64,000 nt of DNA from an uncultured Anaerolineales bacterium (GCA_964532665.1 CAZHMV010000001.1:103742-167741), one strand, 5' to 3'. Shown: positions 14,946-54,625, counted from the stretch's first letter. The notes: a model not told the origin generated them from the letters alone. A program made the numbers and translations.

Positions 14946-15674
14946 ATGAATGTGTTAGTGTTATCAGATATTCATGCAAACCTGGCTGCCCTCAATCAGG
15001 TACTGGATGAAGTAGGTGACGTTGATACAATTTGGTGTCTGGGGGATGTGGTGGGCTATGGACCGGAGCCTAATGCCTGCATAGATCGGCTGCGGGAATT
15101 GCAGCCGGAGTTTTGGTTGGCTGGCAACCATGATTGGGCGGCGCTGGGAAAACTGGACACCTCGGACTTTAACCCCATGGCCAGACTGGCAGCCCTGTGG
15201 ACGCGGCATCAGTTGACGCCCGACAACATGGCTTGGCTGGACACGCTCCCGGCTATTGTGAGGGCTTCAGATCAGTTTACCCTGGCTCATGGTAGCCCCC
15301 GCCATCCAATCTGGGAATACGTTCTTAACGCCCGGGCTGCAGCGGCCAACTTCGCTCACTTCGACACGCCCTACTGCCTGGTGGGGCACACACACGTTCC
15401 GGCAATCTACCGACAGCAGAATGGTCGTGTGGACGTGCCGGCCTTCATGCTGGGGGAACCGATCCAACTGCCCAACGGGCGCGTTATCATCAACCCTGGC
15501 GGTGTGGGGCAGCCACGCGATGGTGACCCTCGGGCAAGCTATCTCATCCTCGATACCGAGGCGCTGACGGCAACCTATCACCGGGTAGCGTATCCCATCC
15601 AGGAAACGCAAGCGAAAATGACGGAGGCCGGCCTGCCGTCCCGCCTGATCACGCGCCTGAACTACGGGTGGTGA
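14946..15674 (+). CDS. Metallophosphoesterase, PPP family (PrpE/ApaH-like)
   Basis: Motifs LSDIHAN, GDVVGYG and GNHD. Confidence 0.7.
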   Translation: MNVLVLSDIHANLAALNQVLDEVGDVDTIWCLGDVVGYGPEPNACIDRLRELQPEFWLAGNHDWAALGKLDTSDFNPMARLAALWTRHQLTPDNMAWLDTLPAIVRASDQFTLAHGSPRHPIWEYVLNARAAAANFAHFDTPYCLVGHTHVPAIYRQQNGRVDVPAFMLGEPIQLPNGRVIINPGGVGQPRDGDPRASYLILDTEALTATYHRVAYPIQETQAKMTEAGLPSRLITRLNYGW

Positions 15675-15681
15675 CCAGGAG

Positions 15682-15781
15682 CAGTAGTCAGTGATCAGTA
15701 ACCAGTGATCAGTAACCAGTGATCAGTGATCAGTACCCAAGACCTGATGACTGATGACCGATCACTGGTCACTGATTACTG
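15682..15781. repeat. Heptamer-periodic hairpin element, CAGTGAT/CAGTAAC family
   Basis: cagtgatcagtaaccagtgatcagtaacc... followed by the inverted arm ...gatcactggtcactgattactg. Confidence 0.8.
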
Positions 15782-15787
15782 AAACAG

Positions 15788-25315: not shown

Positions 25316-25398
25316 AAGCGATAGCGATAGTGATAGTGATAGCGACAGTGGCCGGCTTGCCGTCACTATCACTATCGCTATCACTATCGCTGTCGCTA
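25316..25398. repeat. Hexamer-periodic (GATAGY) hairpin element abutting the rodA stop codon
   Basis: gcgatagcgatagtgatagtgatagcgacagtg - loop - cactatcactatcgctatcactatcgctgtcgc. Confidence 0.75.
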
Positions 25399-27590: not shown

Positions 27591-27610
27591 CTTGTCCTCC
27601 TCTCAAAAAG

Positions 27611-27660
27611 ATTGGAGATTCGAGATGGGAGATTGGAATCGCCAATCCCCAATCTCTATT
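27611..27660. repeat. Heptamer-periodic hairpin element (GAGATTS/CAATCYC) between minC and minD
   Basis: gattggagattcgagatgggagattggaatcgccaatccccaatctc. Confidence 0.65.
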
Positions 27661-33084: not shown

Positions 33085-33178
33085 GTGATCACCAGTCATC
33101 AGTATTCAGTGATCAGTATTCAGTGGACAGTTTCCGATGACCGATCACTGATGACTGATCACTGATTGTCGGTCTCTT
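33085..33178. repeat. Heptamer-periodic hairpin element, CAGTGAT family; overlaps the last codons of rplY
   Basis: gtgatcaccagtcatcagtattcagtgatcagtattcagtg...ccgatcactgatgactgatcactgattg. Confidence 0.8.
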
Positions 33179-34243: not shown

Positions 34244-37030
34244 ATGACCACTATCAATCGCCGCCGGCTTGGCGTCATTCTCTACGTCCTGTGCCTCGGG
34301 GGTCTGTTATTCACCGGGTTCCTCGCTGTCTTTGGACAGCGTTGGCTCCATCGCGGGATCGTCTACGGCCCGCCGCCAGCCATCTCCCTGGCCGGCGCCT
34401 ACCCCTTCGGCGTCAACGTCACGCTGGAGCAGTATTCCCCATCCCAGCGAACGCAAATCCTGAGCCGGCTCGATGACGATGGGTTCCGTTGGGTCCGCCA
34501 GGTGTTGCTCTGGGATCAAGTCGAACCGCGTCCAGGGGAGTACGTGTGGTCGCCGTGGGATCAGATCATCGAGGACGTCGCGGATCACCACCTCAAGCTA
34601 ATCCTGGTCATCGACCGGACGCCGGCCTGGGCTCGCACCGCGCCGGACGCCGACCCACGGGCGCTGCCGGCGCGCCCCGAGGACCTGGCCGGCTTTGTGG
34701 GGGCGGTGGCGGAGCGTTACGCCGGCCAGGTAGCCGCTCTCGAAATCTGGCGCGAGCCGAACCTGCAACCCTATCGTCAGGCAGGTGAGCCGTGGGCCGG
34801 CGGCCCTGACCCGACGCTGTATGTCGCGCACCTGAGAGCAGCCTACCAGTCTGCCAAAGCTGCCAACCCGACCCTCATCGTCCTCAACGCTGGCCTGGCC
34901 CCGACAACTGAGAACAGCTCGCGGGCCATGAGCGACGTGGATTTCCTGGAAGCCATGTACGATGCCGGCGCTGCGCCGTACTTCGATGCACTGGCGGCGC
35001 GTCCGCTGGGCTTCTGGTCCGGTCCCGAGGATCGGCGGGTGGACGCCAGAGTCTTGAACTTCTCGCGGATTCTGCTGTGGCGCGAGATCATGCTCCGCTA
35101 CGGCGATGCCGGCAAGGCGGTGTGGGTGGTGGGGTTTGGCTGGAATGCGCTGCCGGCGGACTGGTCCGGCCTGCCCTCACCCTGGGGGACCGACGATCCA
35201 GCGAAGCAGGCGCGTCGAACCGTCGAGGCCGTGCGCCGGGCACAGGCGGAATGGCCGTGGATGGGTCCCATGCTGGCGTTGCACCTCGATCCGGATGCGC
35301 CCCCCGACGACCCGATCCAGGGGTTCGCGCTGCTGGACGATCAACTCAGCCCGCGGCCGGCCTATCTTGCCCTGCGCGACCTGATCGCAGAGCACACGGT
35401 GGGTGTCGGGCGCTACCCGGCCGATGCGTGGTTTGCCGGCACCGACTGGCGGCCCGTGGACGACGCCACCGTGCGCCGCATGCCCGACGGCGACATCATC
35501 GTCAGCCGGCCCGTCCCCTTCGGTCGATTCTACCTGGCCATTGGGCTGCTGCTGGCAGCCGCCGGCCTCGTCGCGTGGCGTCTCGACCGCCTGATCCGCC
35601 TCCCGCGCTGGGAACTGACTTTCGCTCTCACGACCACCATCTTCTTGCTCTCACCCTGGCTTTCTCTTACCCTTGTCTCAATTCTCGGCCTATTCATCCT
35701 GTTCACGTTTCGACTGGACCTGGGTCTGGCTACCATCGTCCTCTTCATTCCATTTTTCCACTTCCCCAAATCCCTGGGCTCACACCCGATGTCCATTCTC
35801 GAACTCCTCACCTGGCTGGCCATCGCCGCCTGGCTGACCAGACAACTTCCCCGCTTCATTCACGCAATACGCAGTACGCAATACGCAATACGCAGTACGC
35901 AGTACGCATCACGTCTCGCGTCTTACGTCTCACGTCTTACGTCTTGCGTCTCACGTCTTACGTCTCTTGACCATGCGGTGATCTTCCTCCTGCTCGTGAG
36001 CCTCCTCTCCCCTTTCGTCGCCGCCAACAAAGGTGTGGCCATCCACGAACTGCGGGTGGTCGTGATCGACTCAAGTTTGTTCTACTTCCTCGTTCGGTCA
36101 TTGGGGCTGTCCCGTACCCGGCGACGTCCCGAGTCCATCGAGGGGATGTGGCGACTGGTGGATGCACTGGTGTTGGCCGGCCTCATCGTTGCGCTGTACG
36201 GCTTCTACCAGTACATCTTCTCCGGTGATGTCATCGTTGCGGAGGGGGTGCGGCGCATGCGGGGTGTGTACCCATCGCCGAACAACCTGAGCCTGTTCCT
36301 GGGGCGGATCGTGCCGCCGGCCGGCGTGGTTGCGATTTGGGGACCGGCGCGGTGGCGGCGGGTGTTCTACGCCGTGGCCGGCCTGGTCATCACCGGTGCT
36401 CTGTTCCTCACCTTCAGCCGCGCGGCGTGGCTGGTGGGCTTGCCGGCTGCAGCGCTGTTCGTGGGCCTTGTGCGGGGCCGGCGCGCGCTGACGGCCGCTG
36501 TTGCAACCGTTCTGGCTCTCACACTCAGCGTGCTGCCATTTGCCGGCACGGCTCGCATCGGCTCGTTGTTCGAGTTATCGCCGGGCAGCTCGACCTACCG
36601 CCGGCTCGAACTGTGGCAATCGGCAGTGCATATCATCCGCGACCACCCGATCTTCGGGGTGGGATTGGACAACTTCCTGTACCAGTATCGGGAAAAATAC
36701 GTCCTGGCCGGCGCTCGAGACGACCCCAGCCTGTCCCACCCGCACAACCTGATCCTGGATTTCTGGACCCGCCTGGGGGTTTTGGGGGTTGCGGCGCTGG
36801 TCTGGCTGGTGGTCGCGTTTTTCAGAACAGCCTGGCAGTTGTATCAGCGGTTGGATGAGGATGGACGTGTGCTGGCGCTCGCGCTTATGGCCAGCATGGT
36901 CTATGCGCTGGCGCACGGCCTGCTGGACAACTCGTACTTCCTGGTGGATTTGGCATACCTGTTTATGCTGGTGATGGGGGTGATCAGCCGGCTGGAGTTG
37001 GGGCGTCTGGGCAACGAACAGAGGAATTGA
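34244..37030 (+). CDS. Fusion membrane protein: N-terminal TIM-barrel glycoside-hydrolase-like domain (EIWREPN motif) plus C-terminal O-antigen ligase/polymerase (Wzy_C) domain
   Basis: One N-terminal TM, then a cellulase-family-like region, then more than 10 TM helices with the Wzy_C signature FSRAAWLVGLPAAALF and HPIFGVGLDNF. It contains an in-frame heptamer-repeat insertion at 35862-35967. Confidence 0.6.
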   Translation: MTTINRRRLGVILYVLCLGGLLFTGFLAVFGQRWLHRGIVYGPPPAISLAGAYPFGVNVTLEQYSPSQRTQILSRLDDDGFRWVRQVLLWDQVEPRPGEYVWSPWDQIIEDVADHHLKLILVIDRTPAWARTAPDADPRALPARPEDLAGFVGAVAERYAGQVAALEIWREPNLQPYRQAGEPWAGGPDPTLYVAHLRAAYQSAKAANPTLIVLNAGLAPTTENSSRAMSDVDFLEAMYDAGAAPYFDALAARPLGFWSGPEDRRVDARVLNFSRILLWREIMLRYGDAGKAVWVVGFGWNALPADWSGLPSPWGTDDPAKQARRTVEAVRRAQAEWPWMGPMLALHLDPDAPPDDPIQGFALLDDQLSPRPAYLALRDLIAEHTVGVGRYPADAWFAGTDWRPVDDATVRRMPDGDIIVSRPVPFGRFYLAIGLLLAAAGLVAWRLDRLIRLPRWELTFALTTTIFLLSPWLSLTLVSILGLFILFTFRLDLGLATIVLFIPFFHFPKSLGSHPMSILELLTWLAIAAWLTRQLPRFIHAIRSTQYAIRSTQYASRLASYVSRLTSCVSRLTSLDHAVIFLLLVSLLSPFVAANKGVAIHELRVVVIDSSLFYFLVRSLGLSRTRRRPESIEGMWRLVDALVLAGLIVALYGFYQYIFSGDVIVAEGVRRMRGVYPSPNNLSLFLGRIVPPAGVVAIWGPARWRRVFYAVAGLVITGALFLTFSRAAWLVGLPAAALFVGLVRGRRALTAAVATVLALTLSVLPFAGTARIGSLFELSPGSSTYRRLELWQSAVHIIRDHPIFGVGLDNFLYQYREKYVLAGARDDPSLSHPHNLILDFWTRLGVLGVAALVWLVVAFFRTAWQLYQRLDEDGRVLALALMASMVYALAHGLLDNSYFLVDLAYLFMLVMGVISRLELGRLGNEQRN
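35862..35967. repeat. Heptamer-periodic hairpin element (ACGCAAT/ACGCAGT + ACGTCTY arms) inserted in-frame inside the CDS
   Basis: It encodes HAIRSTQYAIRSTQYASRLASYVSRLTSCVSRLTSLD. It belongs to the same family as the elements at 39712, 41168 and 43949. Confidence 0.8.
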
Positions 37031-37039
37031 ACGAACAGA

Positions 37040-37960: not shown

Positions 37961-38090
37961 TAGATTGTTCTCCGGTTCGATATGTCATAATGTGGATTTC
38001 AAGCGTCGCGTGTTGACACGACATACGACGTTCACCGGAGATCGGGTCTTACAGCATTCATCATGGTGTCACAAGTGCACCCTTACGCTT

Positions 38091-38118
38091 TTGACATGGC
38101 AACGGCTCCGTCTATACT
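38091..38118 (+). promoter_or_regulatory. Sigma70-like promoter (TTGACA-16-TATACT) for the DUF2179 protein gene
   Basis: Consensus -35 and a near-consensus -10 about 65 nt upstream of ATG 38185, in a locally GC-poor region. Confidence 0.45.
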
Positions 38119-38184
38119 TGGTAAGTGAGCATGATAAGAGCAGACGCATTGTGGGGCTGTGGTTATCCTGCAATCTATTAGGAG

Positions 38185-39258
38185 GTGGAGGAGATGCCAG
38201 ACGAGCGAACGATTGATGATGAGCAGCACGAAGAGCCGATCTGGACTTTCCGGGGCTATGAGTTGTCGGCGAGTGATCTGAACTCGGCGATGGTTCATCT
38301 GTACCGGGGCGAGGTCCAACGGAGTAACACCTGGCGCCGGCGGCTGGATAGCACAACCAATTGGGCCGTGGTCACGACGGCTGCCGCTCTGTCCCTGGCT
38401 TTCGGCGCGCCCAGCAACTCCCACGTAATGATCATCCTGACAACCCTTCTGGTCACTGTGTTTCTGTATATTGAGTCGCGGCGCTATCGTTATTACGAAT
38501 TGTGGACCTCGCGCGTCCGGCTGATGGAGACCGACTTCTTCGCTGCCATGTTGGTTCCCCCCTTTTGCCCCGATGAGGATTGGGCACGCCGGCTGGCCGG
38601 CAGCCTCCTGCGGCCGGAGTTTCCGGTGAGTGAGATGGAAGCCCTGGGCCGGCGTTTCCGCCGCAACTATGCGGTCATCTTCACCATTCTTGCCCTGGCA
38701 TGGTTCGCGAAGATCGCCATTCATCCTGAGCCGGCGTACTCCTTGCAAGACCTCCTCAATCATGCCAGATTGGGCCCGCTCCCGGGCTGGCTGATAATGG
38801 GAGCCGGGGGGGTATTCTACGTTGCCATTTTTGCAATCGGTTGGCTCACTGTGGAGATGCATGAAGCGCCGGGCGAGGTACTACCCCGCTATCCGTCACC
38901 GCTGGGGCCAGGGCGGTTAATTAACAATATCGCTGAGAAGGCGCAGGAACTCATCCCCGGGACGCTGCATCGTGTGCCGCGCCGCCAGCAATTGGCCTAC
39001 ATCATCACCGACAAAAGCCAGCGCCTGGCCGAGCGACTGATGCATGAGCTGGCGCGCGGGGTGACAGCTCTGGCCGGCACCGGGATGTACACAGGCAAAC
39101 AGCACACAGTCTTGCTGTGCGCGGTCACGCCCACCCAGGTCGCACAGCTCAAGAACATCGTCCGCGAAACGGACCCAGACGCCTTTGTGATCATCACGTC
39201 AGCCTTCGAGGTGATGGGACGAGGGTTCAAGCCAATCAAGAAGGAGTCGAAAAGTTGA
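38185..39258 (+). CDS. Membrane protein with N-terminal DUF2270-like TM domain and C-terminal DUF2179 (YitT-type) domain
   Basis: C-terminus YIITDKSQRLAERLMHELARGVTALAGTGMYTGKQHTVLLCAVT...DPDAFVIITSAFEVMGRGF matches the DUF2179 signature. Confidence 0.55.
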   Translation: MEEMPDERTIDDEQHEEPIWTFRGYELSASDLNSAMVHLYRGEVQRSNTWRRRLDSTTNWAVVTTAAALSLAFGAPSNSHVMIILTTLLVTVFLYIESRRYRYYELWTSRVRLMETDFFAAMLVPPFCPDEDWARRLAGSLLRPEFPVSEMEALGRRFRRNYAVIFTILALAWFAKIAIHPEPAYSLQDLLNHARLGPLPGWLIMGAGGVFYVAIFAIGWLTVEMHEAPGEVLPRYPSPLGPGRLINNIAEKAQELIPGTLHRVPRRQQLAYIITDKSQRLAERLMHELARGVTALAGTGMYTGKQHTVLLCAVTPTQVAQLKNIVRETDPDAFVIITSAFEVMGRGFKPIKKESKS

Positions 39259-39296
39259 AAGTTGGCAGGTCGAAGATTTCACGTTAACCTTCAACC

Positions 39297-39659
39297 CTAA
39301 CCGCTGCCGACAACGAAAGCGATGGCATGGCCGCCCTCGTGGGCCAGGCTGACGGCCAGTTCGGCGACGCCAAGGGCCTGGGCCAACTGCGAAGCAGCGC
39401 CGTGGAGGCGGATGTGGGGCTTGCCGCGGTCGTCGCACCAGACTTCAATCTCCCGCCATCGCACATCCCCGACGCCGGTGCCCAGAGCCTTGGCCACAGC
39501 CTCTTTCGCCGCCCAGCGAGCCGCCAGGGCTTCGGCGCGGCCGGCACAGTAGTCGCGCTCATCCTCGGTGAAGACCCGTTCGAGAAAGCGGGTGCCATGG
39601 CGAGCGAGCGCGCTCTCGATCCGCCTGACCTCAACCAGATCGACACCTGCGATCAACAT
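39297..39659 (-). CDS. acpS: Holo-[acyl-carrier-protein] synthase
   Basis: MLIAGVDLVEVRRIE and a conserved ACPS fold of about 120 aa. Confidence 0.8.
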   Translation of the reverse strand: MLIAGVDLVEVRRIESALARHGTRFLERVFTEDERDYCAGRAEALAARWAAKEAVAKALGTGVGDVRWREIEVWCDDRGKPHIRLHGAASQLAQALGVAELAVSLAHEGGHAIAFVVGSG

Positions 39660-39711
39660 GTCGCTGCCAAACAGTGTCTTTGCGTAGACACAAGGAGTAA
39701 CTACCTCGATC

Positions 39712-39810
39712 TAGACGTAAGACGCAAGACGTGAAACGCGAAACGCGAAACGTGAACATCCTGGACAGTTCATCCCGTTTCGCGCTTCCCGTTTCACGTT
39801 TCGCGCATCG
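39712..39810. repeat. Heptamer-periodic hairpin element (GACGTAA/GACGCAA/AACGCGA); supplies the last codons of the M16 gene
   Basis: gacgtaagacgcaagacgtgaaacgcgaaacgcgaaacgtgaa ... cgtttcgcgcttcccgtttcacgtttcgcg. Confidence 0.8.
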
Positions 39811-41119
39811 GTGGGCCGGCGATGGCCAGTGCGTAGGCGTCCCTCGGGAAGACGCGCCGCGCCGCCTGCTGGACCTGTTCGATGGTGACAGAGTTGATCA
39901 GATCCGGGTAGCGCTGCAGGTAGTCCGGCCCCAGACCAAATAGCTCCATGTCGAGCAAAGTGCCGGCCACCCCTTCGTTCGTTTCCAGGCCCAACGGCAG
40001 GGAACCAGTCAGGTACGATTTCGCATCGTCGATTTCTTGCTCCGACACAGGTTCATCCTGGATGCGGTGGATTTCGGCCAGGATCGTGTCGGTGGCGCGC
40101 TCCACATTGACCGGGTTGACCCCCGTGACGACCCGCCAGGGACCGCGTCCCAGGTGCGCCGACAGTTGGCTGTAGACATAGTAGGCCATTCCCTGCTCGT
40201 CACGCACCTTGTCTCCCAGCCGGCCCCCGATGCCAAAGGTCCCCAGAATCGTGTTGGCCAACCTGGCGCTGTAGTAGTCGGGGTCATCGCGTGCAATGCC
40301 AGGCACTCCCAGGATGATGTCTGCCTGGAGCTTGTCGGGCATTTCGCGCACTTCGCGGCGGACCTCCGTCAGTTGAGTGTCACCGGACGAGTAGCGGACG
40401 TCGGGAATATCCTGTGGGGGACGGGGATCTGCCGGCTGCCAATCCCCCAGGACCTTCTCCACTTTCGAGATGGCATCTTCGGGATCGACGGCGCCAGCCA
40501 CGGCGATGATCGCATCGGTCGGGCGGTAATAGCGGTGGTAAAACTCGGCCAGGTCGTCCCGCGCGATAGTGCCAACTGTCTCAACATATCCATCACTGCT
40601 CCGGCCGTAAGGATGCCCGTCCGGGTACGCGAGTTTGAGGAACGCCAGGTTGGCAACCCCGCGCGTGTCGTTGTCACGTTCCTGCAGTGCGGTGACTAAC
40701 TGCCCACGCACTTTCTCGGTTTCCTCCTCCGGGAAAATGGGATTTCGCAGCACATCGGCCAGAATCCCAAGCACATGGTCCAGGTCTTCGGCCAGGCACT
40801 TGACCCCGAAGGAGGTGACGTGCAGGCCGCCACCTACGCCGAGGCTGGCTCCGATCGACTCGATGGCCTCGCTGATTTCATCGAAGGTACGGTTCTGCGT
40901 TCCGTGATCCAGCATGTCGGCGACGAAGCTGGCCAGGCCGGCCTGCTTCGGTGGATCATCCACGCTGCCAACGCGCAGGTGTCCTCGCAGCACGACCGAT
41001 GGGCTGAGGAAGTTGTCACGGGCCAGCACGGTGATGCCGTTGTCGAGCGTTCGACGCGTGATAGACTCTGGCGTGGGGAGAGAGAGTTCTGGGTTGGTTT
41101 GTTCTGTTCGGATATTCAT
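39794..41119 (-). CDS. M16-family peptidase, non-catalytic-type subunit (no HxxEH motif)
   Basis: Insulinase-like fold. It pairs with the upstream M16 gene that carries HWVEH. Confidence 0.75.
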   Translation of the reverse strand: MNIRTEQTNPELSLPTPESITRRTLDNGITVLARDNFLSPSVVLRGHLRVGSVDDPPKQAGLASFVADMLDHGTQNRTFDEISEAIESIGASLGVGGGLHVTSFGVKCLAEDLDHVLGILADVLRNPIFPEEETEKVRGQLVTALQERDNDTRGVANLAFLKLAYPDGHPYGRSSDGYVETVGTIARDDLAEFYHRYYRPTDAIIAVAGAVDPEDAISKVEKVLGDWQPADPRPPQDIPDVRYSSGDTQLTEVRREVREMPDKLQADIILGVPGIARDDPDYYSARLANTILGTFGIGGRLGDKVRDEQGMAYYVYSQLSAHLGRGPWRVVTGVNPVNVERATDTILAEIHRIQDEPVSEQEIDDAKSYLTGSLPLGLETNEGVAGTLLDMELFGLGPDYLQRYPDLINSVTIEQVQQAARRVFPRDAYALAIAGPPMRET

Positions 41120-41167
41120 TTCATAGAGTTCCTTAGACAGACGTTGTGTACTGGCGCGGGAAGTTAG

Positions 41168-41240
41168 ATTCTTACGTCTTGCGTCTTACGTACTGCGTAA
41201 GCGCTGTCTTTACGCAAGACGTAAGACGCAAGACGCAATA
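41168..41240. repeat. Heptamer-periodic hairpin element (CTTACGT/CTTGCGT family) between the two M16 genes
   Basis: cttacgtcttgcgtcttacgtactgcgtaagcg...tacgcaagacgtaagacgcaagacgcaatac. Confidence 0.8.
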
Positions 41241-41241
41241 C

Positions 41242-42519
41242 TCACACCGGCACATACCACCCAACTGTACGGTTCCTCTCCACCAGGTACGTCTGCGACA
41301 CACGCTGAACATCCTCAGCCGTGACTGCGGCCAGCCGGCCCAGGTAGGCATCGAGCCAGGTGTGGTCGGCGATGATGGATGAGAACCCGAGCCAGTATCC
41401 CTGGTTGGTAACGCTTTCACTGGAATAGGCGAACTGGGCCTTGGCCTGCTTGATGGCTTTGGTCAATTCCTCCTCGGTGACGGGCTCGTCTTTGACGCGC
41501 TCGATCTCGTGCCACAGGGCGTCTTCCACTTCCTGTGGGGAGCGGCCGGCCCGAACCGTCGCCGAGAAGGAGAACAGATAAGGATCCACGGTCGCGAAAA
41601 CGTTGCTGCCAACCGCCGACGCGAGTTTCGTCTTCACGAGAGCCTGGTAGAGACGTGACGTCCGATTCGTTGTGCCACCACCGCCGAAGAAGGCCATGGC
41701 CTGGGAGCCACCCAAGATGCTGTCCAACACCAGCAGTGGGAAGAAATCTGGATGGTCGGCTGCCGGCACGTGGAACACCGCCTGTATGTATGCCGTCCGT
41801 CCCTCGCCACGAACTGTCACCCGACGCTCGCCGCGCTGTGGGGGTTCTACAAACGTGACCAGCGGCACTTCGGGGCCTTCTGGGATGCCCTCGAACAGCT
41901 CTCGAACCCGATCCAGCAGCGCCTCGGTCTCGAAGTCCCCAACAGCGACGGCAATCGCATTGTTGGGCGTGTAGTAGGTGCGGTAGTGCTTCCACAAATC
42001 GTCGCGCGTCATGGACTCCAGGTCGCACTGCCACCCGATGACCTCGTGATGATACGGATGAACCTTGAACGCGGCCGCCTGAACCTCCTCGCTCAGCAGA
42101 AACGTGGGCTGGTTCTCATGCATCTGGCGCTCCGAGATGATGACGGTGCGCTCAGCATCGGCCTCTTCGGGGTCGAAGACGGAATTGATCATGCGATCAG
42201 ATTCGAGGCGCAACGCCAGGTCGAAACGGTCAGCCGGCAAGGTCTCGAAATACGTGGTAAAGTCCACCCACGTCATGCCGTTCATGATACCTCCGTTGCG
42301 CGCGATCTGGCGATCGATTTCGCCCTTCGGGAACTGAGGCGTATCTTTGAAGAGCATGTGCTCCACCCAGTGAGAGACACCCGTCACACCCAGAGTTTCG
42401 TTCCGACTGCCGACGCGATAGAATACCCAGAAGCTGGCAACGGGCGCGCGGTGGATTTCCTTTGTCAAGACGGTCAGGTGGTTATCCAACACCGTCATGC
42501 GGATGTTATTCTCCATCAA
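41242..42519 (-). CDS. M16-family zinc peptidase (active-type, HWVEH zinc-binding motif)
   Basis: HxxEH inverted zincin motif at [12 protein letters not shown] 4-bp overlap with the ugd stop. Confidence 0.8.
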
Positions 42520-43895
42520 ACCGGCTCCTCAACTTCCAACACGGTCTTTTCAAACCTGATCAACGTATCTCTTCCCCATTCCGTGCGACCGGTGCCGTTG
42601 TAGCCACGGCCCATGCCCTGGTACACGAAGCCCAACTCCGCCATTTTGTCGGGTTCGTAGATGTTCCGGCCATCGATGATCACAGGCCGGCGCATCAAGT
42701 CGCGGACGCGGCCCAGGTCGAGCTGCTTGAACTCGTTCCACTCCGTGGCGATTACCAGGGCATCGCTGCCTTCCGCGACACGGTAGGCATCTTCACACAG
42801 TTCGACCTGCTCGAGCTGCCGGCGCGCGTTCTCCATCGCTACCGGATCATACGCCTTGATCTGCACACCCTCGTTTTGCAGCATGTGGATGATCTCGACC
42901 GCAGGTGACTCACGCATATCATCGGTGTTGGGCTTGAAAGACAACCCCAGTATCCCGATGCTTGTGTCATCGAGCCGGCCCAGGATGTTGCGCAGCTTGC
43001 GAATTACCTGCCGGCGGCGGTCGCGGTTGATCTCGATGACGGCTCGCAGCAGTTGGGGGTGCGTGCCATGGATGGCCGCCATGTGGGCCAGGGCTTTGAC
43101 GTCCTTGGGAAAACAGCTTCCCCCCCACCCTATGCCGGCGTCCAGGTAGGCATGCCCGATGCGCTTGTCGTACCCCATGCCGGCAGCAACCTCCTTGATA
43201 TCGGCTCCTAGTTGCTCGCACACCGACGCGATCTCGTTGATGAACGAGAGACGTGTCGCAAGAAAGGCGTTGGAAGCATATTTGATCATCTCGGCGGTGC
43301 GCAGGTCGGTGATGATGATCGGCGCTCGCAGAGGCAGGTAGAGCTGGGCCACCGATTCGGCGTGGTCCCGGTCGATCGCGCCCAGCACCACGCGGTCGGG
43401 ATTCAGGAAATCGGTGACCGCCGAGCCTTCCCGGGTGAACTCGGGGTTGGAAACGACCGCGAACTTCACCGGCTCCTTCAGATGCCGCCGGACCACGTTC
43501 GCCACAACGTCGCCGGTGCCAATGGGCACCGTGCTGCGATTTACGATGACCACCGGATGATCCAACACCTGGCCGATCCCGCGAGCAACGTCCCGCACAT
43601 AGTGCAGATCGGCTTCTCCCTCAGCGCCCGACGGGGTATCGACGCAAATGAAGATGAACTCGCTGTTGTGGACACCTTCCTCGTACGAAAGAGTGAAGCG
43701 CAGCCGGCCCTGTCCGACGTTTCGGCGAACCATCTCCTCCAGCCCGGGCTCGTAGATGGGCATGACGCCGCGCTGGAGCTTGGCAATCTTGGATTCGTCG
43801 ATGTCGATGCAAGTCACGTTGTTGCCCAGGTCGGCGAAACAGGTGCCGGTCACCAGACCGACGTAGCCGGTACCAATGACGCAGATGTTTTTCAT
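42516..43895 (-). CDS. ugd: UDP-glucose 6-dehydrogenase
   Basis: N-terminal Rossmann fold GTGYVGL and a catalytic GGSCFPKD motif. Confidence 0.85.
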
Positions 43896-43948
43896 GAATG
43901 TGTTCTCCTTGTGGGTAATTGATGTTTAGCGATAGGAGGACAGGAAAA

Positions 43949-44016
43949 CGATTGCGTATTGCGTATTGGGTAGAGAGTCGGCCAGGAAACACCTTGTACG
44001 CAGTACGCAGTACAAG
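43949..44016. repeat. Heptamer-periodic hairpin element (GCGTATT / GTACGCA arms; G-U-pairing hairpin)
   Basis: attgcgtattgcgtattggg...cttgtacgcagtacgcagtacaag. Confidence 0.65.
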
Positions 44017-44044
44017 CTTATCTTACCACACAAACGAATTGTCC

Positions 44045-45382
44045 TCAACCTATCGAGATGGCAACACCGTTGCTCTCCCGGGCGCCGGCCATGACCCTTT
44101 GGGCAATCCGCTGCCCGATCTCCACGGCGTAGTTGGTGCCCCGGTCCCAGGGGTACACCTGGCTCATGCTGGCAAAGTACAGGCCAGGGACCGGCGTCTC
44201 CAGCGGTGGGATGTGTTGCGAGTAGTTCACCGGCACCACCGGCTGGGCGTAGGCAGCTTTGAAAAGCCACTTCTGTTTGACCCAGGACGGGTCGAAGGTC
44301 GGGTTGATGCGCGAGAGGGCCGGCTGAAATACCTCGAAAAGCTCGTCCTCGTCCATGGAGAAATAGGGATGGGTCGGCGGCAGGTAATCGCCCAGGTATG
44401 CCAGGTGGTCGCCCCCATAATGCTCCGGGTCAATGAAGTTCGTGTGCTCCACAAAGGCCAGAAATGGAAACACACGCTTGTCCAGATTGATCCAGTACAT
44501 GCCATCGGTAATATGCCGATCAAAGGCGATGACCATGACCACAGCCCCCAGGGCATTCAGGTTGCGCAACGACACCAGATAGTCCGATGGCAAGCCGGGT
44601 ACCATGCGCATAAGCAGCGCCGGCGACACGGTACTGATCACGGCATCGAAGGCTTCGTCAACGCCCTCCCCCCTGACACGTAGCCGCCCTTCCGTCAGGA
44701 GAGTAACAGACTGCACCGGCGTGGAGACCAATATCTCACCTCCCAGCCGACGGACCCGATCTGCCAGGGCATCCACAAAAGCCTGAAACCCGCCTTCAAA
44801 GTAGCCCAGCTTGAACGTGCGGGCCCTGAAGCGTGCCCACAGCCAGGCAGCGTTCACCTCGTTGGCAAAGGGGCCGAACTTCCCTTCAAGCAATGGCTGG
44901 ATGCCGTTGCGATAAGCCGTTTCCCCCATCCAGCGCCGCGACCATTCAGCAGCAGTGGTCTGCTCCAGTTCGCCCCAGTTGGTGGTCCCGTATTTCAGGT
45001 AGGCCATTGCAGCGCCGTACCGAACACGGGCCAGGAACGGCATTGCCGGAAAGCGCAGCACATTCCGTGTCGCCTCGATGGGGTTGGCCCCATCCAGGGG
45101 AAAGATCTGCCCATTGTACCATTGCGCCGTGATAGGATTGCGAAAGAAGAGCCTGTCGCCAAAACCGATCTCATCCACCAGCTTGCGGATAGCACGATCA
45201 GTCTGGAACAAGTGATGGTAGAAGCGCTCCAGATGCCAGCCCCATCCTTCGGCGCGGAACCCCGAGGCAAGCCCACCTACTCCGGGCGCTGCCTCAAACA
45301 GGATGGCGTCATGGCCAGCCCTGGTCAACTCATAGCCGGCGGTGAGACCTGTCACGCCGGCGCCGATGATACCAACTTTCAA
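44045..45382 (-). CDS. FAD-dependent oxidoreductase (amine oxidase / phytoene desaturase-like family)
   Basis: N-terminal dinucleotide-binding motif IIGAGVTGLTAGYEL...EAAPGVGG. Confidence 0.7.
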   Translation of the reverse strand: MKVGIIGAGVTGLTAGYELTRAGHDAILFEAAPGVGGLASGFRAEGWGWHLERFYHHLFQTDRAIRKLVDEIGFGDRLFFRNPITAQWYNGQIFPLDGANPIEATRNVLRFPAMPFLARVRYGAAMAYLKYGTTNWGELEQTTAAEWSRRWMGETAYRNGIQPLLEGKFGPFANEVNAAWLWARFRARTFKLGYFEGGFQAFVDALADRVRRLGGEILVSTPVQSVTLLTEGRLRVRGEGVDEAFDAVISTVSPALLMRMVPGLPSDYLVSLRNLNALGAVVMVIAFDRHITDGMYWINLDKRVFPFLAFVEHTNFIDPEHYGGDHLAYLGDYLPPTHPYFSMDEDELFEVFQPALSRINPTFDPSWVKQKWLFKAAYAQPVVPVNYSQHIPPLETPVPGLYFASMSQVYPWDRGTNYAVEIGQRIAQRVMAGARESNGVAISIG

Positions 45383-45417
45383 AGATCACTCCACCTTCGA
45401 TAACAAAGACCAGACAA

Positions 45418-45486
45418 CGGGATGCGGGATGTGAGATACGGGATACGAGATACGGGATGCCGCATCCCGCATCTCGCGTCACGTCC
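45418..45486. repeat. Heptamer-periodic hairpin element (GGGATRY family); overlaps the last codons of the downstream gene
   Basis: gggatgcgggatgtgagatacgggatacgagatacgggatgccgcatcccgcatctcgcgtcacgtccc. Confidence 0.75.
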
Positions 45487-46507
45487 CACTCGTCATGCCC
45501 AACGGCGCTTCCTCGACAGGTGATTCTATTTCCACTTCCGTCCTTACCTCCTCCCACGACAGATGCTCGCGCCAGAGATAGAAAGCACCCAGAGCGGTGA
45601 TGGGCAGCCAAAGGGCTGCGTGGAGCACGGCAGTGTACGCTGTGGCTACGCTGCCGGCCACGCCAAAGTTCTCCAGAATCTCAATCCCCGGGGCATCGAA
45701 CGTACCGATGTAGCCAGGGGCCGCCGGCAGTGTGGTGAACAGGTTGACCACGCCGTTCATCAGCATCAGCACGTAGAAATCGACATGAAACGGGAACGCG
45801 TGCATCACGAACCAGTACTTGCCCGTCTCAAACAGCCAGATGACGACAGACGTGATGAAAATCATCATCACGTCTCGCCCTCTGCGCAGCGAATGCAGCC
45901 CTTCCAGGAAGAGGTCAAGGGGTTCTCGCACACGCGGTTGCAATCTTTCGGGCAGCAGGCGTTCGATGAGCCGGCCGTAGATGGCTTGGGCGCGCTCCGG
46001 CATGGCTGCCAGCAACAGAAAGACGACCAACGCCCCGATGAACAGCAGGCTGAACAGAACAACGAAGGTGCTGTAGCGCGACCCCAGGCCGGCAATCGGC
46101 AGAGTGATGAACACGAACAGCAGCATCGTGAGTCCGTCGAACAGCCGCTCCACGACCACCGTCGCCAGCGTGGCACTGATGGGAACGCCGGTTCGTCTTT
46201 TGAGCGCGTATGAGCGCAGGAGTTCGCCGGCTCGAGCCGGGTAGATGTTGTTACCCATATAGCCGATGCAGACGAAGGGAAACAACTGCTGCAGGGAGAT
46301 GACCTTCAAGGGACGGAGCATATAGTGCCAGCGCCAGGTGCGCGCCCCCACGCCCAGGAAATACACGGCGACACCCGGCAATAGCCAGAAGTATTGCGCG
46401 TTTTGTAACGCATGCCACACTTCGGGAAGGTCCTGCTTGCGCAGTACAAACGCCAGAAGAATGGCGCTGATAAGCATTCCCAACCAGAATCGCCAGCGTT
46501 TCCGCAT
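45479..46507 (-). CDS. LPG_synthase_TM / UPF0104-family integral membrane protein (flippase-like domain)
   Basis: Eight predicted TM helices with a GVGARTWRWHYMLR-type motif, followed by a cytoplasmic tail. Confidence 0.6.
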   Translation of the reverse strand: MRKRWRFWLGMLISAILLAFVLRKQDLPEVWHALQNAQYFWLLPGVAVYFLGVGARTWRWHYMLRPLKVISLQQLFPFVCIGYMGNNIYPARAGELLRSYALKRRTGVPISATLATVVVERLFDGLTMLLFVFITLPIAGLGSRYSTFVVLFSLLFIGALVVFLLLAAMPERAQAIYGRLIERLLPERLQPRVREPLDLFLEGLHSLRRGRDVMMIFITSVVIWLFETGKYWFVMHAFPFHVDFYVLMLMNGVVNLFTTLPAAPGYIGTFDAPGIEILENFGVAGSVATAYTAVLHAALWLPITALGAFYLWREHLSWEEVRTEVEIESPVEEAPLGMTSGT

Positions 46508-46586
46508 GCCTGCTCACTTTCCCGAATCCGTAACTACGTTAACCATAGGAGCGTGCACACGCGGCACGCCCCTGAGTCAACGCGGA

Positions 46587-46615
46587 ATTATACACGAGAG
46601 TGCTGGGAGAAACAA
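46587..46615 (-). promoter_or_regulatory. Candidate promoter (TTGTTT-17-TATAAT) for the LPG_synthase_TM-family gene
   Basis: Minus-strand -10 TATAAT (plus-strand 46587-46592) preceded by GTG, with a -35 TTGTTT. Confidence 0.4.
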
Positions 46616-46715
46616 AGGAAGGAATGGAAGTGTGGAAGAGGGAGAATGGAAGATGGACAATGGAAAGGGGAAGATGGAGGTTGACCTCCATCTTCCCCTT
46701 TCCGTTGTCCATCTT
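46612..46715. repeat. Heptamer-periodic repeat (GGAATGG/AAGATGG...) forming a roughly 32-bp near-perfect hairpin abutting the SWIM gene stop
   Basis: gaagatggacaatggaaaggggaagatggagg-ttgacc-tccatcttcccctttccgttgtccatcttc. Confidence 0.8.
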
Positions 46716-46973
46716 CTAGTTGGCGCTTGTTTCAGCCATCCACTCAGGACGAAGCATGCCGTTCAAGACCCGCTCCATGGTCATGGTGTGGCTGCACACA
46801 CCGCGCGTCAGGAAGAAATCGCAATCGCAATTCCAGTGGCCCTCGTTGTATGAAACTGCATGTGAGTTGTGGTCGCCAGCAATTGTAACTCTGAACTCAC
46901 TGAAAACGATCCGGTCTGTTTCTTGCGCGTATTGCTTCGCCTTCTGGATCTTGCCGATCATCGCCGAATCCAT
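46716..46973 (-). CDS. Small SWIM zinc-finger protein (85 aa)
   Basis: CxC-x11-CxH pattern (HWNCDCDFFLTRGVCSH). A GAAGGAGG RBS precedes the ATG. Confidence 0.5.
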   Translation of the reverse strand: MDSAMIGKIQKAKQYAQETDRIVFSEFRVTIAGDHNSHAVSYNEGHWNCDCDFFLTRGVCSHTMTMERVLNGMLRPEWMAETSAN

Positions 46974-47026
46974 TTCTAAGAACCTCCTTCTTCTTGATGA
47001 GAGGGAAACCTGGTGAGTTAGGAAAC

Positions 47027-47062
47027 AAAAAGCACGCAGGCAGACACCTACCTACGTGCTTC
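47027..47062 (-). terminator. Rho-independent terminator (stem AAGCACG/CGTGCTT followed by a TTTTTGTTT tract)
   Basis: Minus strand. It is downstream of the PGI/PMI gene and lies inside the leader of the SWIM gene. Confidence 0.6.
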
Positions 47063-47150
47063 TCCAGACGCTTACTCGCGTTGCTCTTCGGCTCATTGGA
47101 GTTACTTGGGTCCTCCTTGCGGCCACGTCGCCGCTAAGTTCTTCATGTCA

Positions 47151-47179
47151 AGTATAACCGTTTCGATTCGCGATGTCAA
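47151..47179 (-). promoter_or_regulatory. Near-consensus sigma70 promoter TTGACA-17-TATACT firing toward the terminator and SWIM gene
   Basis: -35 at 47179..47174 and -10 at 47156..47151 (minus strand). GC-poor local context. Confidence 0.5.
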
Positions 47180-47211
47180 ATCTATGTCCCCAGGAAACGA
47201 GGTAATTTGCC

Positions 47212-48291
47212 TTAAAATCCTGAGTTCGTAGGAATATCGTTCGAAAGTCGCTCTTTCAAGTAGTCGATGGCAGGGATAGGGGTCGGGTCCACCTGGTTGA
47301 GAGCGGCCAGGTAGTAGCTCACGTAGTCCGCGTAGTGCAGCGCTGACAACATTTGAGCTGTCGGGCTCTCGCCCCACGAAGTGATCACGGCGTGGTCGAT
47401 GCCGGCCTGTTCCAGCATCTCGGCAGTGATGTCGAATCGTGTCGCAATCCGGGGGTCATCGAGGGACGAGCGTAACATGACGACAAACGCCGTGCCGCCA
47501 AGGTGCGCCGGGTGCTGGTAGCCCAGGACGGTGTTGTGGTTCAGCTCCGGCAGCTCGTCGAAGGCGGCCCAGGTCTTGGCGTTCTCGTTGAACTGGCCCT
47601 TCCAACGCCGGGCCACGGGGGCCAGAAGGCCGGCCCCGTAGATCGTCGGGACCTTGTCGTAGAGCCGGCGTGCCAGGTCCTTGGCCGGATTGCGAGCCGC
47701 CGGCACCTGTGGCCCGATGAGGCGTTGGAGCCGCAGCATCACGTCGATGGCTTCCGCCACCTCATCGCCTTTGTCCGCCAGCAACCCGAACCGAACCAGC
47801 AAGCCCAGCAGGAGCGTGAAGGAGTGGCCAACGGCCGCACGTGGTGGCGCATCGTAACTAAACAGCACGTGCAGAAAGCCCCGTTCCTGCGCGATTTCGG
47901 CCAGCCGGCCACCGGTCGTCACGGCCACCGTTCTGGCCTCGAAGCTCAGCGCTTCGCCGAGGGCTGACAGCGTCTCCTCGGTGTTGCCGGAGAAACTGGA
48001 AATGATAACGAGGGTATTTTCGTTTACATAGGCCGGCAGGTGATAGTCCCGGTTGACCGCGATAGGCACGGGGCACTCAGGTTCCGCCAGGGCCTGCACC
48101 AGCGACCCACCGATAGCCGACCCTCCCATGCCGGCGATGATCACGTTGTGGGTCTCGTGAGGAGTGAGTGGCGTCAAGGCCTGGATGGTATCCCACGCAT
48201 CCTGGACCTGGGTCGGCAGTTCGCTGATACGATCCAGCATGTTTGCCGGATCATTAGCACGCAGAGCATCAAGATCGTCTAAGTCAATCAT
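47212..48291 (-). CDS. Bifunctional phosphoglucose/phosphomannose isomerase (SIS-domain PGI/PMI family)
   Basis: SIS motifs NVIIAGMGGSAIGG and SFSGNTEET. Confidence 0.8.
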   Translation of the reverse strand: MIDLDDLDALRANDPANMLDRISELPTQVQDAWDTIQALTPLTPHETHNVIIAGMGGSAIGGSLVQALAEPECPVPIAVNRDYHLPAYVNENTLVIISSFSGNTEETLSALGEALSFEARTVAVTTGGRLAEIAQERGFLHVLFSYDAPPRAAVGHSFTLLLGLLVRFGLLADKGDEVAEAIDVMLRLQRLIGPQVPAARNPAKDLARRLYDKVPTIYGAGLLAPVARRWKGQFNENAKTWAAFDELPELNHNTVLGYQHPAHLGGTAFVVMLRSSLDDPRIATRFDITAEMLEQAGIDHAVITSWGESPTAQMLSALHYADYVSYYLAALNQVDPTPIPAIDYLKERLSNDIPTNSGF

Positions 48292-48436
48292 AGTACCGCT
48301 ATTCTAGCAGACTCTTCCACATAAATCAATCGAGTGGCCAAAATCAATCAATCGCCCGTCGCTGGCGACGTGGCGTGCCTCATTCGGTTGGGCGGCCTGG
48401 CAAGCGCTCAGCGGGGTGGATGCCCTGCGAGGGCAT

Positions 48437-48464
48437 TTGACATCGCTCACTGACCTGGTAGAAT
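48437..48464 (+). promoter_or_regulatory. Sigma70-like promoter (TTGACA-16-TAGAAT) for mnmE; the predicted TSS lies only about 4 nt before the ATG (near-leaderless)
   Basis: A 7-bp palindrome GGATGCCCT-GCG-AGGGCAT overlaps the -35. Confidence 0.45.
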
Positions 48465-48474
48465 TGCTCAGGAA

Positions 48475-49839: not shown

Positions 49840-49845
49840 TCATTC

Positions 49846-51315: not shown

Positions 51316-51423
51316 TCTGTGGCAAGCCTGTGACAGGGGATATGGCCGGCCCTGCCAGCGTGTGGCAGGGCCGATTTCTTCTGGTGTGCCAGACATGCCG
51401 TGTATCCAGGGCCGGGCATTGCA

Positions 51424-51538
51424 ACTACTCCCCCTCTTGCAGGTCAATCCTTCTCTGGCCGAGAATCGCCGCCCTCAGTCCCTTTACCACGGGCAAAACC
51501 ACGGTTCATCACAGTCTGCGGGAGAGTGGCTGAGTGGT
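51424..51538. mobile_element. MITE-like palindromic repeat element copy 4 (degenerate)
   Basis: Shares GGCCGAGAATCGC, AAAACCA and TGCGGGAGAGTGGCTGAGTGGT with copy 3. The TIRs are partly eroded. Confidence 0.6.
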
Positions 51539-51670
51539 TGCCTGGAATCCAAATATCTTCCCTATCACTTCTTCATAATTTCTGAACAAGTTTCTTGTAT
51601 ACTTGTGGCAGATACGGTTTGGCCGGCATGTTGGTCTGCCGAACGAACAGAAGTGAAGGAGGTAAGTGGA

Positions 51671-53164: not shown

Positions 53165-54625
53165 ATGATTCGCTCACTGGCTCTTAAGCTCACCCTGGCT
53201 TTTCTCGTGGTTGCGGTTATGGGCACCGTGCTGGTGGCCTTGTTCGTCGGGCAGCGAACGCAGGATGAGTTTGGCCGGTTCGTCCTCGACCGATACCGGG
53301 CGGATGTTGTCACCGAGTTGGCCGCGTACTACGAGAAGAATGGGAGTTGGGAGGGAGTAGATGCCATCGCGGTCCGTGATCTCGGTGGGCACCCTGGTCG
53401 GTGGGGGCCGGGTTGGGTACGGGTAACGCTCATTGATGCGCACAGCAAGGTTGTTTATGGCGAGTCACGTTACCGCGTGGGAGAGCAGGTGCCCCGGTCT
53501 GACAGCAATCACAGCCTGCCGATTCGGGTGAATGATGAAACGGTTGGTTGGTTGCTGTTCGATTCGTTTAGAGCCAGGGGGCGCCTGCTACCAGGTTCAC
53601 CTGAGTCAGCTTTCCTGGCAAGGGTGACGCGCGCCATCACCTTTGGCACCCTGGGAGCCATGGTGATTGCGTTGCTACTGGGTGTCTTGCTGGCGCGCAC
53701 CATCTCGCGTCCAGTTCGTGAATTGACGGCCGCCACACAACTCGTGGCGCAAGGGGAGCTGGGGCTTCAGGTACCTGTTCGCACCAAGGACGAGTTGGGT
53801 GAACTGGCTGCCTCGTTCAACCAGATGAGTGCAGACCTGGCGCATTCGAATCAGTTGCGCCGGCACATGACGGCCGACATCGCCCACGAACTGCGGACGC
53901 CCCTCAGCGTGATCCTGGGCTACACGGAAGCGTTGAGCGACGGCAAGCTGCAAGCCACACCGAAGACGTTTAGCATTTTGCACGACGGGGCGAAACACCT
54001 CAGTCGCCTGGTCGAGGATCTGCAGACGCTGGCGCTGGCAGATGCCGGCGAGTTGTCGCTAACTCGCCGGCCTGTTGATCCCAGAGTGTTGCTGGAACAC
54101 GCGGCGTCGGCTTACATGGGGCGCGCCGAGGAGAAGGGCATCTCGCTAAGCGTCGAGGCTGCACCGGATTTGCCGGAGGTCGAGGTTGACCCCGATCGGA
54201 TGGCGCAAGTGCTGGGCAATTTGCTGACCAATGCGCTGCGCCACACACCGGCCGGCGGGCGAGTCACTATGCAGTGTTCAGTCATCAGTCAACAGTTAGC
54301 AGTAAACAGTGATCAGTCATCAGTGATCAGTAACCAAACTGCTGCGGACGGCAAACTGATTACTGATAACTGTTTACTGATTACTGTCACGGACACCGGC
54401 ACCGGCATTGCCCCCGAGGACCTACCCCACGTTTTTGAACGCTTCTATCGCGGGGACAAGTCGCGCCAGAGGCAGGAAGGGGAGTCGGGACTGGGGCTGG
54501 CGATTGCCAAATCGATTGTGCAGATGCATGGTGGGAGCATTGCCGTTGACAGTACGCCTGGCGAAGGCACGACTTTCACCATCGTTTTGCCGGCCGAACC
54601 GGGTCCCCCTGACGGTGAGGTATAG
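53165..54625 (+). CDS. Sensor histidine kinase (2 TM, HAMP, HisKA, HATPase_c) carrying an in-frame repeat insertion in the ATPase domain
   Basis: H-box HELRTPLSVILGY, N-box LLTNALRHT, G1 DTGTGI and G2 GLGLAIAKSIV. Confidence 0.85.
   Translation: MIRSLALKLTLAFLVVAVMGTVLVALFVGQRTQDEFGRFVLDRYRADVVTELAAYYEKNGSWEGVDAIAVRDLGGHPGRWGPGWVRVTLIDAHSKVVYGESRYRVGEQVPRSDSNHSLPIRVNDETVGWLLFDSFRARGRLLPGSPESAFLARVTRAITFGTLGAMVIALLLGVLLARTISRPVRELTAATQLVAQGELGLQVPVRTKDELGELAASFNQMSADLAHSNQLRRHMTADIAHELRTPLSVILGYTEALSDGKLQATPKTFSILHDGAKHLSRLVEDLQTLALADAGELSLTRRPVDPRVLLEHAASAYMGRAEEKGISLSVEAAPDLPEVEVDPDRMAQVLGNLLTNALRHTPAGGRVTMQCSVISQQLAVNSDQSSVISNQTAADGKLITDNCLLITVTDTGTGIAPEDLPHVFERFYRGDKSRQRQEGESGLGLAIAKSIVQMHGGSIAVDSTPGEGTTFTIVLPAEPGPPDGEV
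54272..54390. repeat. Heptamer-periodic hairpin element (CAGTGAT family) inserted in-frame between the N-box and G1-box of the histidine kinase
   Basis: It encodes QCSVISQQLAVNSDQSSVISNQTAADGKLITDNCLL. Confidence 0.8.

Follow-up and report, generated by a model that had tools for sequence, protein, structure and literature searches.

Heptanucleotide-array hairpins in the spacers of a conserved gene string from an uncultured Anaerolineales bacterium

The short tandemly repeated repetitive sequences (STRR) of filamentous cyanobacteria are "usually made up of 7 bp repeats" and form hairpins, in several species between hupS and hupL, for which an influence on the stability of the transcript or on the coupling of translation has been suggested (PMC2670836). 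We describe here elements of comparable build in a stretch of 64,000 nt from an uncultured Anaerolineales bacterium (GCA_964532665.1, CAZHMV010000001.1:103742-167741; hereafter the window), in which a minus-strand string of genes running from an LPG_synthase_TM-family gene through ugd and two M16 peptidase genes to acpS carries inverted heptanucleotide arrays in each of its spacers. On balance it is probable that the element in each spacer belongs to a class of heptanucleotide-array palindromes found throughout the genome, driven by slippage and forming the Chloroflexota counterpart of the hairpin-forming STRR. As with STRR, units of 7 nt stand in tandem, several families occur per genome, and the elements are mostly intergenic, form hairpins and are found between the cistrons for two subunits within one operon. 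The host differs, being a member of the Anaerolineae (Chloroflexota) with a GC-rich genome (61%) rather than a heterocystous or filamentous cyanobacterium. Presumably the units also differ from the three classical STRR units (STRR1-3). A search limited to the open-access literature turned up no account of inverted heptamer arrays at stop codons in Anaerolineae, nor does that literature describe for STRR the layout of array, loop and complementary array flush with a stop codon, the hot spot at one junction or the copies in frame within genes that are reported below.

Several other systems share part of this construction. Differing heptamer motifs that yield one structure are known from the P6b stem of the group I intron in Nostoc tRNA-Leu(UAA), which is made up of degenerate heptamers, TDNGATT or NNTGAGT, with 7- or 14-nt insertions and deletions on one or both sides (PMC4476775); the stems of the window are likewise heptamer-built with whole-unit insertions and deletions, but P6b is a single locus within a structured RNA and is not dispersed between protein-coding genes. 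The repetitive extragenic palindromic (REP) sequences and REPINs of Enterobacteria and Pseudomonas resemble the elements in being extragenic palindromes near stop codons in co-directional strings. REPs stabilise upstream mRNA and, in E. coli, cause ribosomes to stall when they lie no more than 15 nt from the stop codon (Liang et al., 2015, as cited in PMC12306157). REPs however form conserved families of 20-40 nt with a GTAG or CGTC head and a REP-associated tyrosine transposase (RAYT), whereas the elements described here have many unrelated units, tandem-repetitive arms and lengths of 60-110 nt. No RAYT (Y1 transposase) was found among the approximately 50 open reading frames (ORFs) of the window. 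The TAACTGA repeats of marine Beggiatoaceae, some Cyanobacteria and Bacteroidetes are intergenic direct repeats (1 of 170 sets inverted) lying a few nucleotides upstream of start codons (PMC4679880). In the window one family, the CAGT family, has almost the identical unit: its 3′ arms read TNACTGA and the peptides SVISxQ and LITDN match a table in the same paper. The CAGT-family elements are inverted, however, and sit at stop codons, with 18-145 nt to the following start, and the five spacer elements of the string use other units. Finally, Chloroflexus aurantiacus carries (GATAGRA)n heptamer satellites (PMC6749651), GGGAATC and GGGGAYT heptamer repeats occur in Xanthomonas and Nostoc (PMC4692102), and an excess of heptamer simple sequence repeats is known from many bacteria (Mrazek et al., 2007, as summarised in PMC4679880 and PMC4692102). 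These satellites share with the present elements an intergenic over-representation, found also in a Chloroflexi genome, and differences in length and sequence at corresponding gene pairs of close relatives, but they have been described as direct arrays or G-quadruplex formers with no hairpin layout or stop-codon association reported.

The string comprises the LPG_synthase_TM-family gene (hereafter LPG), a gene for an amine-oxidase-type FAD oxidoreductase (FAD), ugd, the M16 peptidase genes M16a and M16b, and acpS, and is preceded by up85 (Table 1). Because ugd and M16a overlap by 4 nt there is no spacer between them, and the real spacers of the string are five in number: up85-LPG, LPG-FAD, FAD-ugd, M16a-M16b and M16b-acpS. 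The claim of a preliminary description of this locus that every spacer holds a hairpin was borne out, with an inverted pair of tandem arrays of about 7-nt units in all five, the fifth gap being the one upstream of the LPG gene, after up85. Read on the mRNA strand, each element consists of an array of about 7-nt units, a short loop and an array of the complementary unit. Four of the five hairpins (J, I, G and F) fold strongly on this strand, with z-scores of -5.7 to -11.9 for exact-boundary folds compared, for each strand, with 200 dinucleotide shuffles, H being the exception. Within the arms of F, G, H and I the identity at lag 7 was 0.67-1.00, with 0.00-0.44 at other lags, and Tandem Repeats Finder (TRF) reported period 7 at all five sites. 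A different heptamer had been claimed for each gap, and the units do differ, being GAAGATG-like in J, GCGGGAT/ATCCCGY in I, GTACTGC/CAATACG in H, GTCTTRC/GYAAGAC in G and GYGAAAC/GTTTCRC in F. The five units are not fully independent, as the 3′ tail of F (39.7 kb) carries the unit of G (41.2 kb). J is barely 7-periodic and H is weak on the sense strand.

Table 1. Genes, heptamer-array elements and other signals of the window, in window coordinates; fold z refers to the mRNA strand.
Feature	Position	Strand	Remarks
up85, 85-aa ORF upstream of LPG gene	46716-46973	-	
LPG_synthase_TM-family gene	45479-46507	-	Pfam
Amine-oxidase-type FAD oxidoreductase gene	44045-45382	-	Pfam
ugd	42516-43895	-	Pfam
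M16a, first M16 peptidase gene	41242-42519	-	Pfam
M16b, second M16 peptidase gene	39794-41119	-	Pfam
acpS (ACPS)	39297-39659	-	Pfam
Element J, up85-LPG spacer	46633..46716	-	fold z -11.9
Extended -10-like TGTATAAT	46587..46594	-	downstream of J; kept in L001 and L002
Element I, LPG-FAD spacer	45418..45484	-	fold z -5.7
Element H, FAD-ugd spacer	43951..44013	-	fold z -1.7 (sense)
Element G, M16a-M16b spacer	41167..41243	-	fold z -8.4
Element F, M16b-acpS spacer	39713..39805	-	fold z -6.1
Element A, CAGTGAT/ATCACTG (CAGT family)	15674..15782	+	begins at stop of metallophosphoesterase gene
Element B, hexamer version GCGATA/GTGATA, 34-nt arms	25317..25398	-	over stop of FtsW/RodA-family gene
Element C, GATTGGR/CCAATCY	27609..27650	-	fills minC-minD spacer from minC stop
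Element D, CAGT family	33093..33166	-	over last codons (DNQ) and stop of rplY
Element E	35862..35966	+	in frame within Wzy_C ORF
Element K, CAGT family, TAACTGA-like 3′ arm	54278..54386	+	in frame within histidine kinase ORF
Element L, CAGT family	58900..59012	.	between convergent genes, overlaps both stops; encodes VNSEQ*
Intrinsic terminator GGCCC-TGTC-GGGCC + T7	33016-33029	-	rplY-mreB spacer, directly downstream of D
Intrinsic terminator, GC stem + T-run	51347-51373	+	terminator scan

The individual elements vary in how closely they follow the common plan. J has arms of 33 nt (46649-46681 and 46684-46716) that are 97% complementary around a 2-nt loop, with a purine-rich 5′ arm (GAAGATG GACAACG GAAAGGG GAAGATG GAGG) and a pyrimidine-rich tail (46633-46648), and the base of its stem covers part of the TAG stop of the 85-aa ORF. 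Judged from its sequence, the downstream TGTATAAT is a probable promoter of the LPG string, in which case J would mark the 3′ end of the preceding transcript. I begins over the TGA stop of the LPG gene with a 5′ arm of GCGAGAT GCGGGAT GCGG followed by a 3′ arm of six ATCCCGY/ATCTCGY units. H, which lies 31 nt past the stop codon, has 2.6 copies of GTACTGC (43996-44013) and three of CAATACG (43951-43972) with about 23 nt between them, and folds better on the antisense strand (z -4.8) than on the sense strand. G begins at the TGA stop of M16a with arms of 34 nt (41167-41200 and 41210-41243), 85% complementary, of which the 5′ arm reads GTATTGC GTCTTGC GTCTTAC GTCTTGC and the 3′ arm GCAGTAC GTAAGAC GCAAGAC GTAAGA. 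In F the arms measure 33 nt (39723-39755 and 39773-39805) and are again 85% complementary, with GCGAAAC GTGAAAC GGGAAGC GCGAAAC in the 5′ arm, (GTTTCGC)x3 GTTTCAC in the 3′ arm and a tail of GTCTTGC GTCTTAC GTC. The 5′ arm of F codes for the final four codons of M16b and its stop (...MRET*); together with rplY (...DNQ*) and a 1106-aa fusion (...VNSEQ*) elsewhere in the window, this confirms the earlier observation that elements can supply the last codons of the upstream gene.

Comparison with relatives indicates how the elements change. The nearest genomes are metagenome-assembled genomes (MAGs) of Anaerolineae, with M16a identities to the window of 92% (L001), 90% (L002), 88% (L003), 82% (L004) and 82% (L005) and of 55-65% for the rest, and the gene order up85-LPG-(FAD)-ugd-M16-M16-acpS is a conserved housekeeping synteny across Anaerolineae. 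I is common to the window, L001 and L002 as a GGGATRC unit in differing copy numbers, the window and L001 being one 7-nt step apart, and within an arm the units have been homogenised to a variant particular to each genome. L001 also has F, with an identical loop and a 21-nt difference in length; L003 and L005 lack it. G has a homologue in L004 in which the TGAGTATTGCGT start is kept and both arms have changed, being GTCTTGC/GCAAGAC in the window and GTACTGC/GCAGTAC in L004; at the same position L001 has a different repeat, L003 has only a 10-nt palindrome left and L005 has nothing, while GTAYTGC is present at a different locus in L004. H was found in the window alone, being absent from L001 and with other elements in its place in L002 and L005. 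J has homologous G/A-rich hairpins in L001 and L002, with a classical GC stem and T-run there in L006, L008 and L009. F, G and H are each missing in some relatives with 82-92% identity in M16. The comparison shows that the elements change more rapidly than the non-coding DNA on either side, in steps of whole units, and that the stem tends to survive. A metagenome scan for strain-level polymorphism found no relative above 65% identity, and an exact look-up of the 928-aa protein of the window matched no contig. As a separate matter, ugd of L004 (811-2042) and L009 (7919-9336) is split near residue 260-265 by an insert of 1.2-1.4 kb, which could be an intein, an intron or an insertion sequence.

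The five spacer elements belong to a larger population. TRF identified 18 arrays of period 7 in the window, whereas 10 Markov shuffles yielded none; the 18 make up 12 elements (A-L) with at least six unit types. Unit families recur at unrelated loci, with CAGTNAN at 15.7, 33.1, 54.3 and 58.9 kb and GTMYTRC at 35.9, 39.7, 41.2 and 44.0 kb. A heptamer or hexamer hairpin is present in 9 of the 24 tandem spacers of at least 40 nt, in one of two convergent spacers and in none of six divergent ones; at such a density the run of five in the string is only mildly unusual (0.375^5, approximately 0.007 per position). [quoted passage not shown] The protein ending in VNSEQ*, whose last codons lie in L, is an APH-M23-aminotransferase fusion. 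The hexamer unit of B resembles the (GATAGRA)n satellites reported for Chloroflexus aurantiacus.

In a wider survey of related Anaerolineae loci (143 sequences, 1.5 Mb) no tandem period was commoner than 7, which was seen in 125 arrays; 87 of these were mostly intergenic, though intergenic bases account for only 13% of the total. [quoted passage not shown] About half of the intergenic arrays in other lineages have no strong inverted partner. Stop triplets recur at +7 and +14 at 14 of 1046 gene ends, with 0-8 at other lags, an enrichment that is not independent evidence because the arrays abut stop codons. Across the phylum the M16a-M16b junction is a hot spot for arrays, which were present at 31 of 88 such junctions (26 of 38 with a gap of at least 20 nt), at 14 of 73 M16b-acpS junctions (13 of 48), at 1 of 63 ugd-M16a junctions (1 of 31) and in 31 of 449 other tandem spacers of 20-600 nt. 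The arrays between M16a and M16b are built from at least ten unrelated units, among them CAATGAA, CAGTGAT, GACGTTT, AACCTGA, AAGGAYG and ACGGAAC. The two M16 genes overlap in many lineages, and the M16a-M16b spacers that do exist consist mostly of heptamers. The same junction has also received whole small genes, in L009 (11269-11604), L013, L022, L023, L037 and L061, the insert being a HicB-like ORF in L009 (judged by eye) and a membrane-protein-like ORF of about 850-900 nt in L022, L023, L037 and L061.

Two elements lie in frame within genes. K is situated in a HAMP/HisKA/HATPase_c histidine kinase ORF (53165-54625) and encodes SVISQQLAVNSDQSSVISNQTAADGKLITDNCLLIT, about 36 aa between the N box and the G1 box with the pattern SVISxQ... 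/ ...LITDN, in which frame positions that would be TGA read TCA. Most homologues of the kinase (450-460 aa) lack the insert, which is kept in relatives at 94, 84 and 67% identity with its DNA still hairpin-forming; in one relative (L145) one arm is 21 nt shorter and the other 21 nt longer. K may simply lengthen a beta-hairpin, its arms encoding two strands around a loop. E, composed of the adjacent arrays (ACGCART)6.7 and (TYACGTC)8.3, lies in a 928-aa Wzy_C (O-antigen ligase-like) ORF (34244-37030) and is translated, in a loop, as HAIRSTQ YAIRSTQ YASRLAS YVSRLTS CVSRLTS; Wzy_C orthologues carry variable numbers of 7-aa repeats in this loop. Since a change of one 7-nt unit would shift the frame, the E locus could be phase-variable. 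These in-frame copies speak for a general mutational process as the origin of the elements, which then survive where they are tolerated. For the annotation of Anaerolineae MAGs they also have a practical consequence, as the elements change the 3′ ends of genes, add 7-aa repeats to proteins and can lead gene prediction astray; an ORF-based gene caller split the histidine kinase that bears K.

In the slippage-driven reading that we favour, arrays would grow and shrink by replication slippage of whole units, in steps of 7 nt between genes and 21 nt where the frame must hold. Selection for the stem, correction templated by the hairpin (quasipalindrome template switching) or a combination of the two would keep the arms complementary. 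Elements would persist where they are harmless, that is in the stretch from a stop codon to the next promoter or ribosome binding site, in the last few codons of a gene and in tolerant protein loops. Many units contain TGA, TAA or TAG and therefore any frame closes within three units. Because the genes of the string are co-directional and closely spaced the elements are likely to be transcribed into polycistronic mRNA, where they would fold as stems of 20-35 bp directly 3′ of the stop codon; such stems would most plausibly block 3′ exonucleases in the manner of REPs, serve RNase III as substrates or get in the way of the terminating ribosome.

A number of points weigh against this account. Slippage alone gives direct and not inverted repeats, and for this reason we only infer the origin of the second arm; every effect of the hairpins at the RNA level is likewise conjectural, a REP-like effect on mRNA being plausible. 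J is only weakly periodic, with an identity of 0.58-0.62 at lag 7 and 0.51-0.56 at lag 6. Pairing is not strictly maintained in L001, where a systematic A·C mismatch on the sense strand affects each unit of I. The sharp differences between sites, above all those between M16a-M16b and ugd-M16a where the gap is at least 20 nt, are not an obvious outcome of a purely mutational process and may point to selection.

Such site differences lead to the alternative that fares best, which we regard as possible but rather doubtful, namely that the elements are selected operon punctuation: intercistronic RNA elements that set mRNA stability, RNase III or RNase E processing or translational uncoupling, the heptamers being merely a means of building stems. 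The hot spot falls between genes for two subunits of one enzyme and is occupied by arrays with many unrelated units, the stems outlast changes of unit and in the kinase ORF are kept down to 67% protein identity, and STRR hairpins lie in an analogous place between hupS and hupL. The preliminary description had compared the elements to REP-like operon punctuation, and as far as position and architecture are concerned the comparison stands: the palindromes are extragenic and, within co-directional strings, follow immediately on stop codons, they are missing from the divergent spacers of the window, and J occupies the position of a canonical terminator in the distant relatives L006, L008 and L009. 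E. coli REPs within 15 nt of a stop codon are, in the account of Liang et al. (2015) cited in PMC12306157, known to affect translation. Several findings fit poorly with a conserved punctuation system: the elements are not one sequence family, come and go among relatives with 82-92% identity in M16, include two copies inside genes, and have neither U-tracts nor a wobble bias. The last was examined as a test for RNA-level selection by comparing G·U with A·C mismatches between the strands, which gave 3 to 2 in the five elements and 28 to 28 in 65 survey arrays and hence no signal. The mismatched units of I in L001 and the intergenic arrays of other lineages that lack a strong inverted partner also speak against punctuation. 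Rfam 15 gave no match above the gathering threshold in the window, and an E-value search returned only sub-threshold look-alikes of miRNA precursors for the long stems.

It is quite unlikely that the elements are factor-independent terminators or attenuators of an unusual type lacking a U-tract. The stems are very stable and stand at gene 3′ ends, L lies between convergent genes, and J is followed by the promoter-like TGTATAAT and takes the place of the canonical terminator of distant relatives. A generic terminator scan of 33000-52000 (19 kb) found 13 candidates where 13.1 were expected, which implies that something else might do the job. However, no U-tract follows any of the five stems, elements are present inside evident operons (minC-minD, M16a-M16b) and inside ORFs, and stems of 20-35 bp far exceed those of intrinsic terminators. 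The window also contains two textbook terminators, one of them immediately downstream of D, and the organism therefore uses canonical termination too. Canonical terminators in the strict sense were rejected for the elements themselves, as there is no T-run after the five stems, the scan does not call any of the elements in its entirety and real terminators are found elsewhere.

Spread as non-autonomous mobile elements of the REP/REPIN or miniature inverted-repeat transposable element (MITE) type, mobilised by a transposase encoded elsewhere, is very unlikely. The recurrence of the CAGTNAN and GTMYTRC unit families at unrelated loci, the GTAYTGC copy elsewhere in L004 and the insertions within genes could be read in this way, and the ACG family contains CGTC, a known REP head motif (PMC3733652); in the window CGTC occurs inside GTCTTRC/GACG units (F tail, G and E) and not in I, J or the CAGT family. 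Against this, loops, ends and full-length sequence differ from one element to the next, neither target-site duplications nor terminal inverted repeats were seen, no transposase is present among the approximately 50 ORFs of the 64-kb window, and orthologous elements differ by whole units and not by the presence or absence of a fixed cassette. Integron attC sites were dismissed on account of the conserved synteny and the lack of an integrase in the window, the GTTRRRY/RYYYAAC box pair not having been noticed on reading, with no motif search run for it, and CRISPR arrays and MITEs were rejected in view of the conserved synteny, the absence of spacers or terminal repeats and the fact that the window has no integrase or transposase.

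Questions about what STRR do and how they arose date back to 1990, with evidence that is mostly cyanobacterial, and the heptamer-array palindromes of the Anaerolineae add a second well-sampled phylum. They also bring three regularities, the abutment on stop codons, the hot spot between two subunit genes, and the steps of 7 nt between genes and 21 nt within them, which make the STRR question approachable by comparative genomics and metatranscriptomics. A broader and unlikely proposition is that heptamer-array hairpins are a maintained post-transcriptional punctuation common to filamentous bacteria from unrelated phyla, comprising Cyanobacteria (STRR), Beggiatoaceae (TAACTGA) and Anaerolineae, in which stems at the ends of cistrons would be built by a factor able to read or write units of 7 nt. 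If this were true the stems would replace classical terminators and set the ratios of M16a to M16b or hupS to hupL, and the same machinery would seed the translated 7-aa repeats.

Other repeats were noted in the window and its relatives. Long near-perfect hairpins at 4941-5011, 57542-57607 and 62185-62247 have arms of 31, 23 and 25 nt, respectively, and periods of about 8-10 nt and not 7. The first two sit after stop codons, that at 4941-5011 beginning exactly at a stop, while that at 62185-62247 falls in the first 40 or so codons of the 1106-aa ORF, which suggests that the true start lies further downstream. Another repeat family, CCTGAGC...GTCGAAGG, is represented at 6224-6288 by 2.8 exact copies of a 23-nt unit and also occurs in L143 (6150-6400, 7855-8185 and 9735-9980), L002 (4270-4537) and L005 (147-564). 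In close relatives this family takes the form of near-perfect palindromic MITE-like elements of 200-400 nt, which fill spacers that are short in the window.

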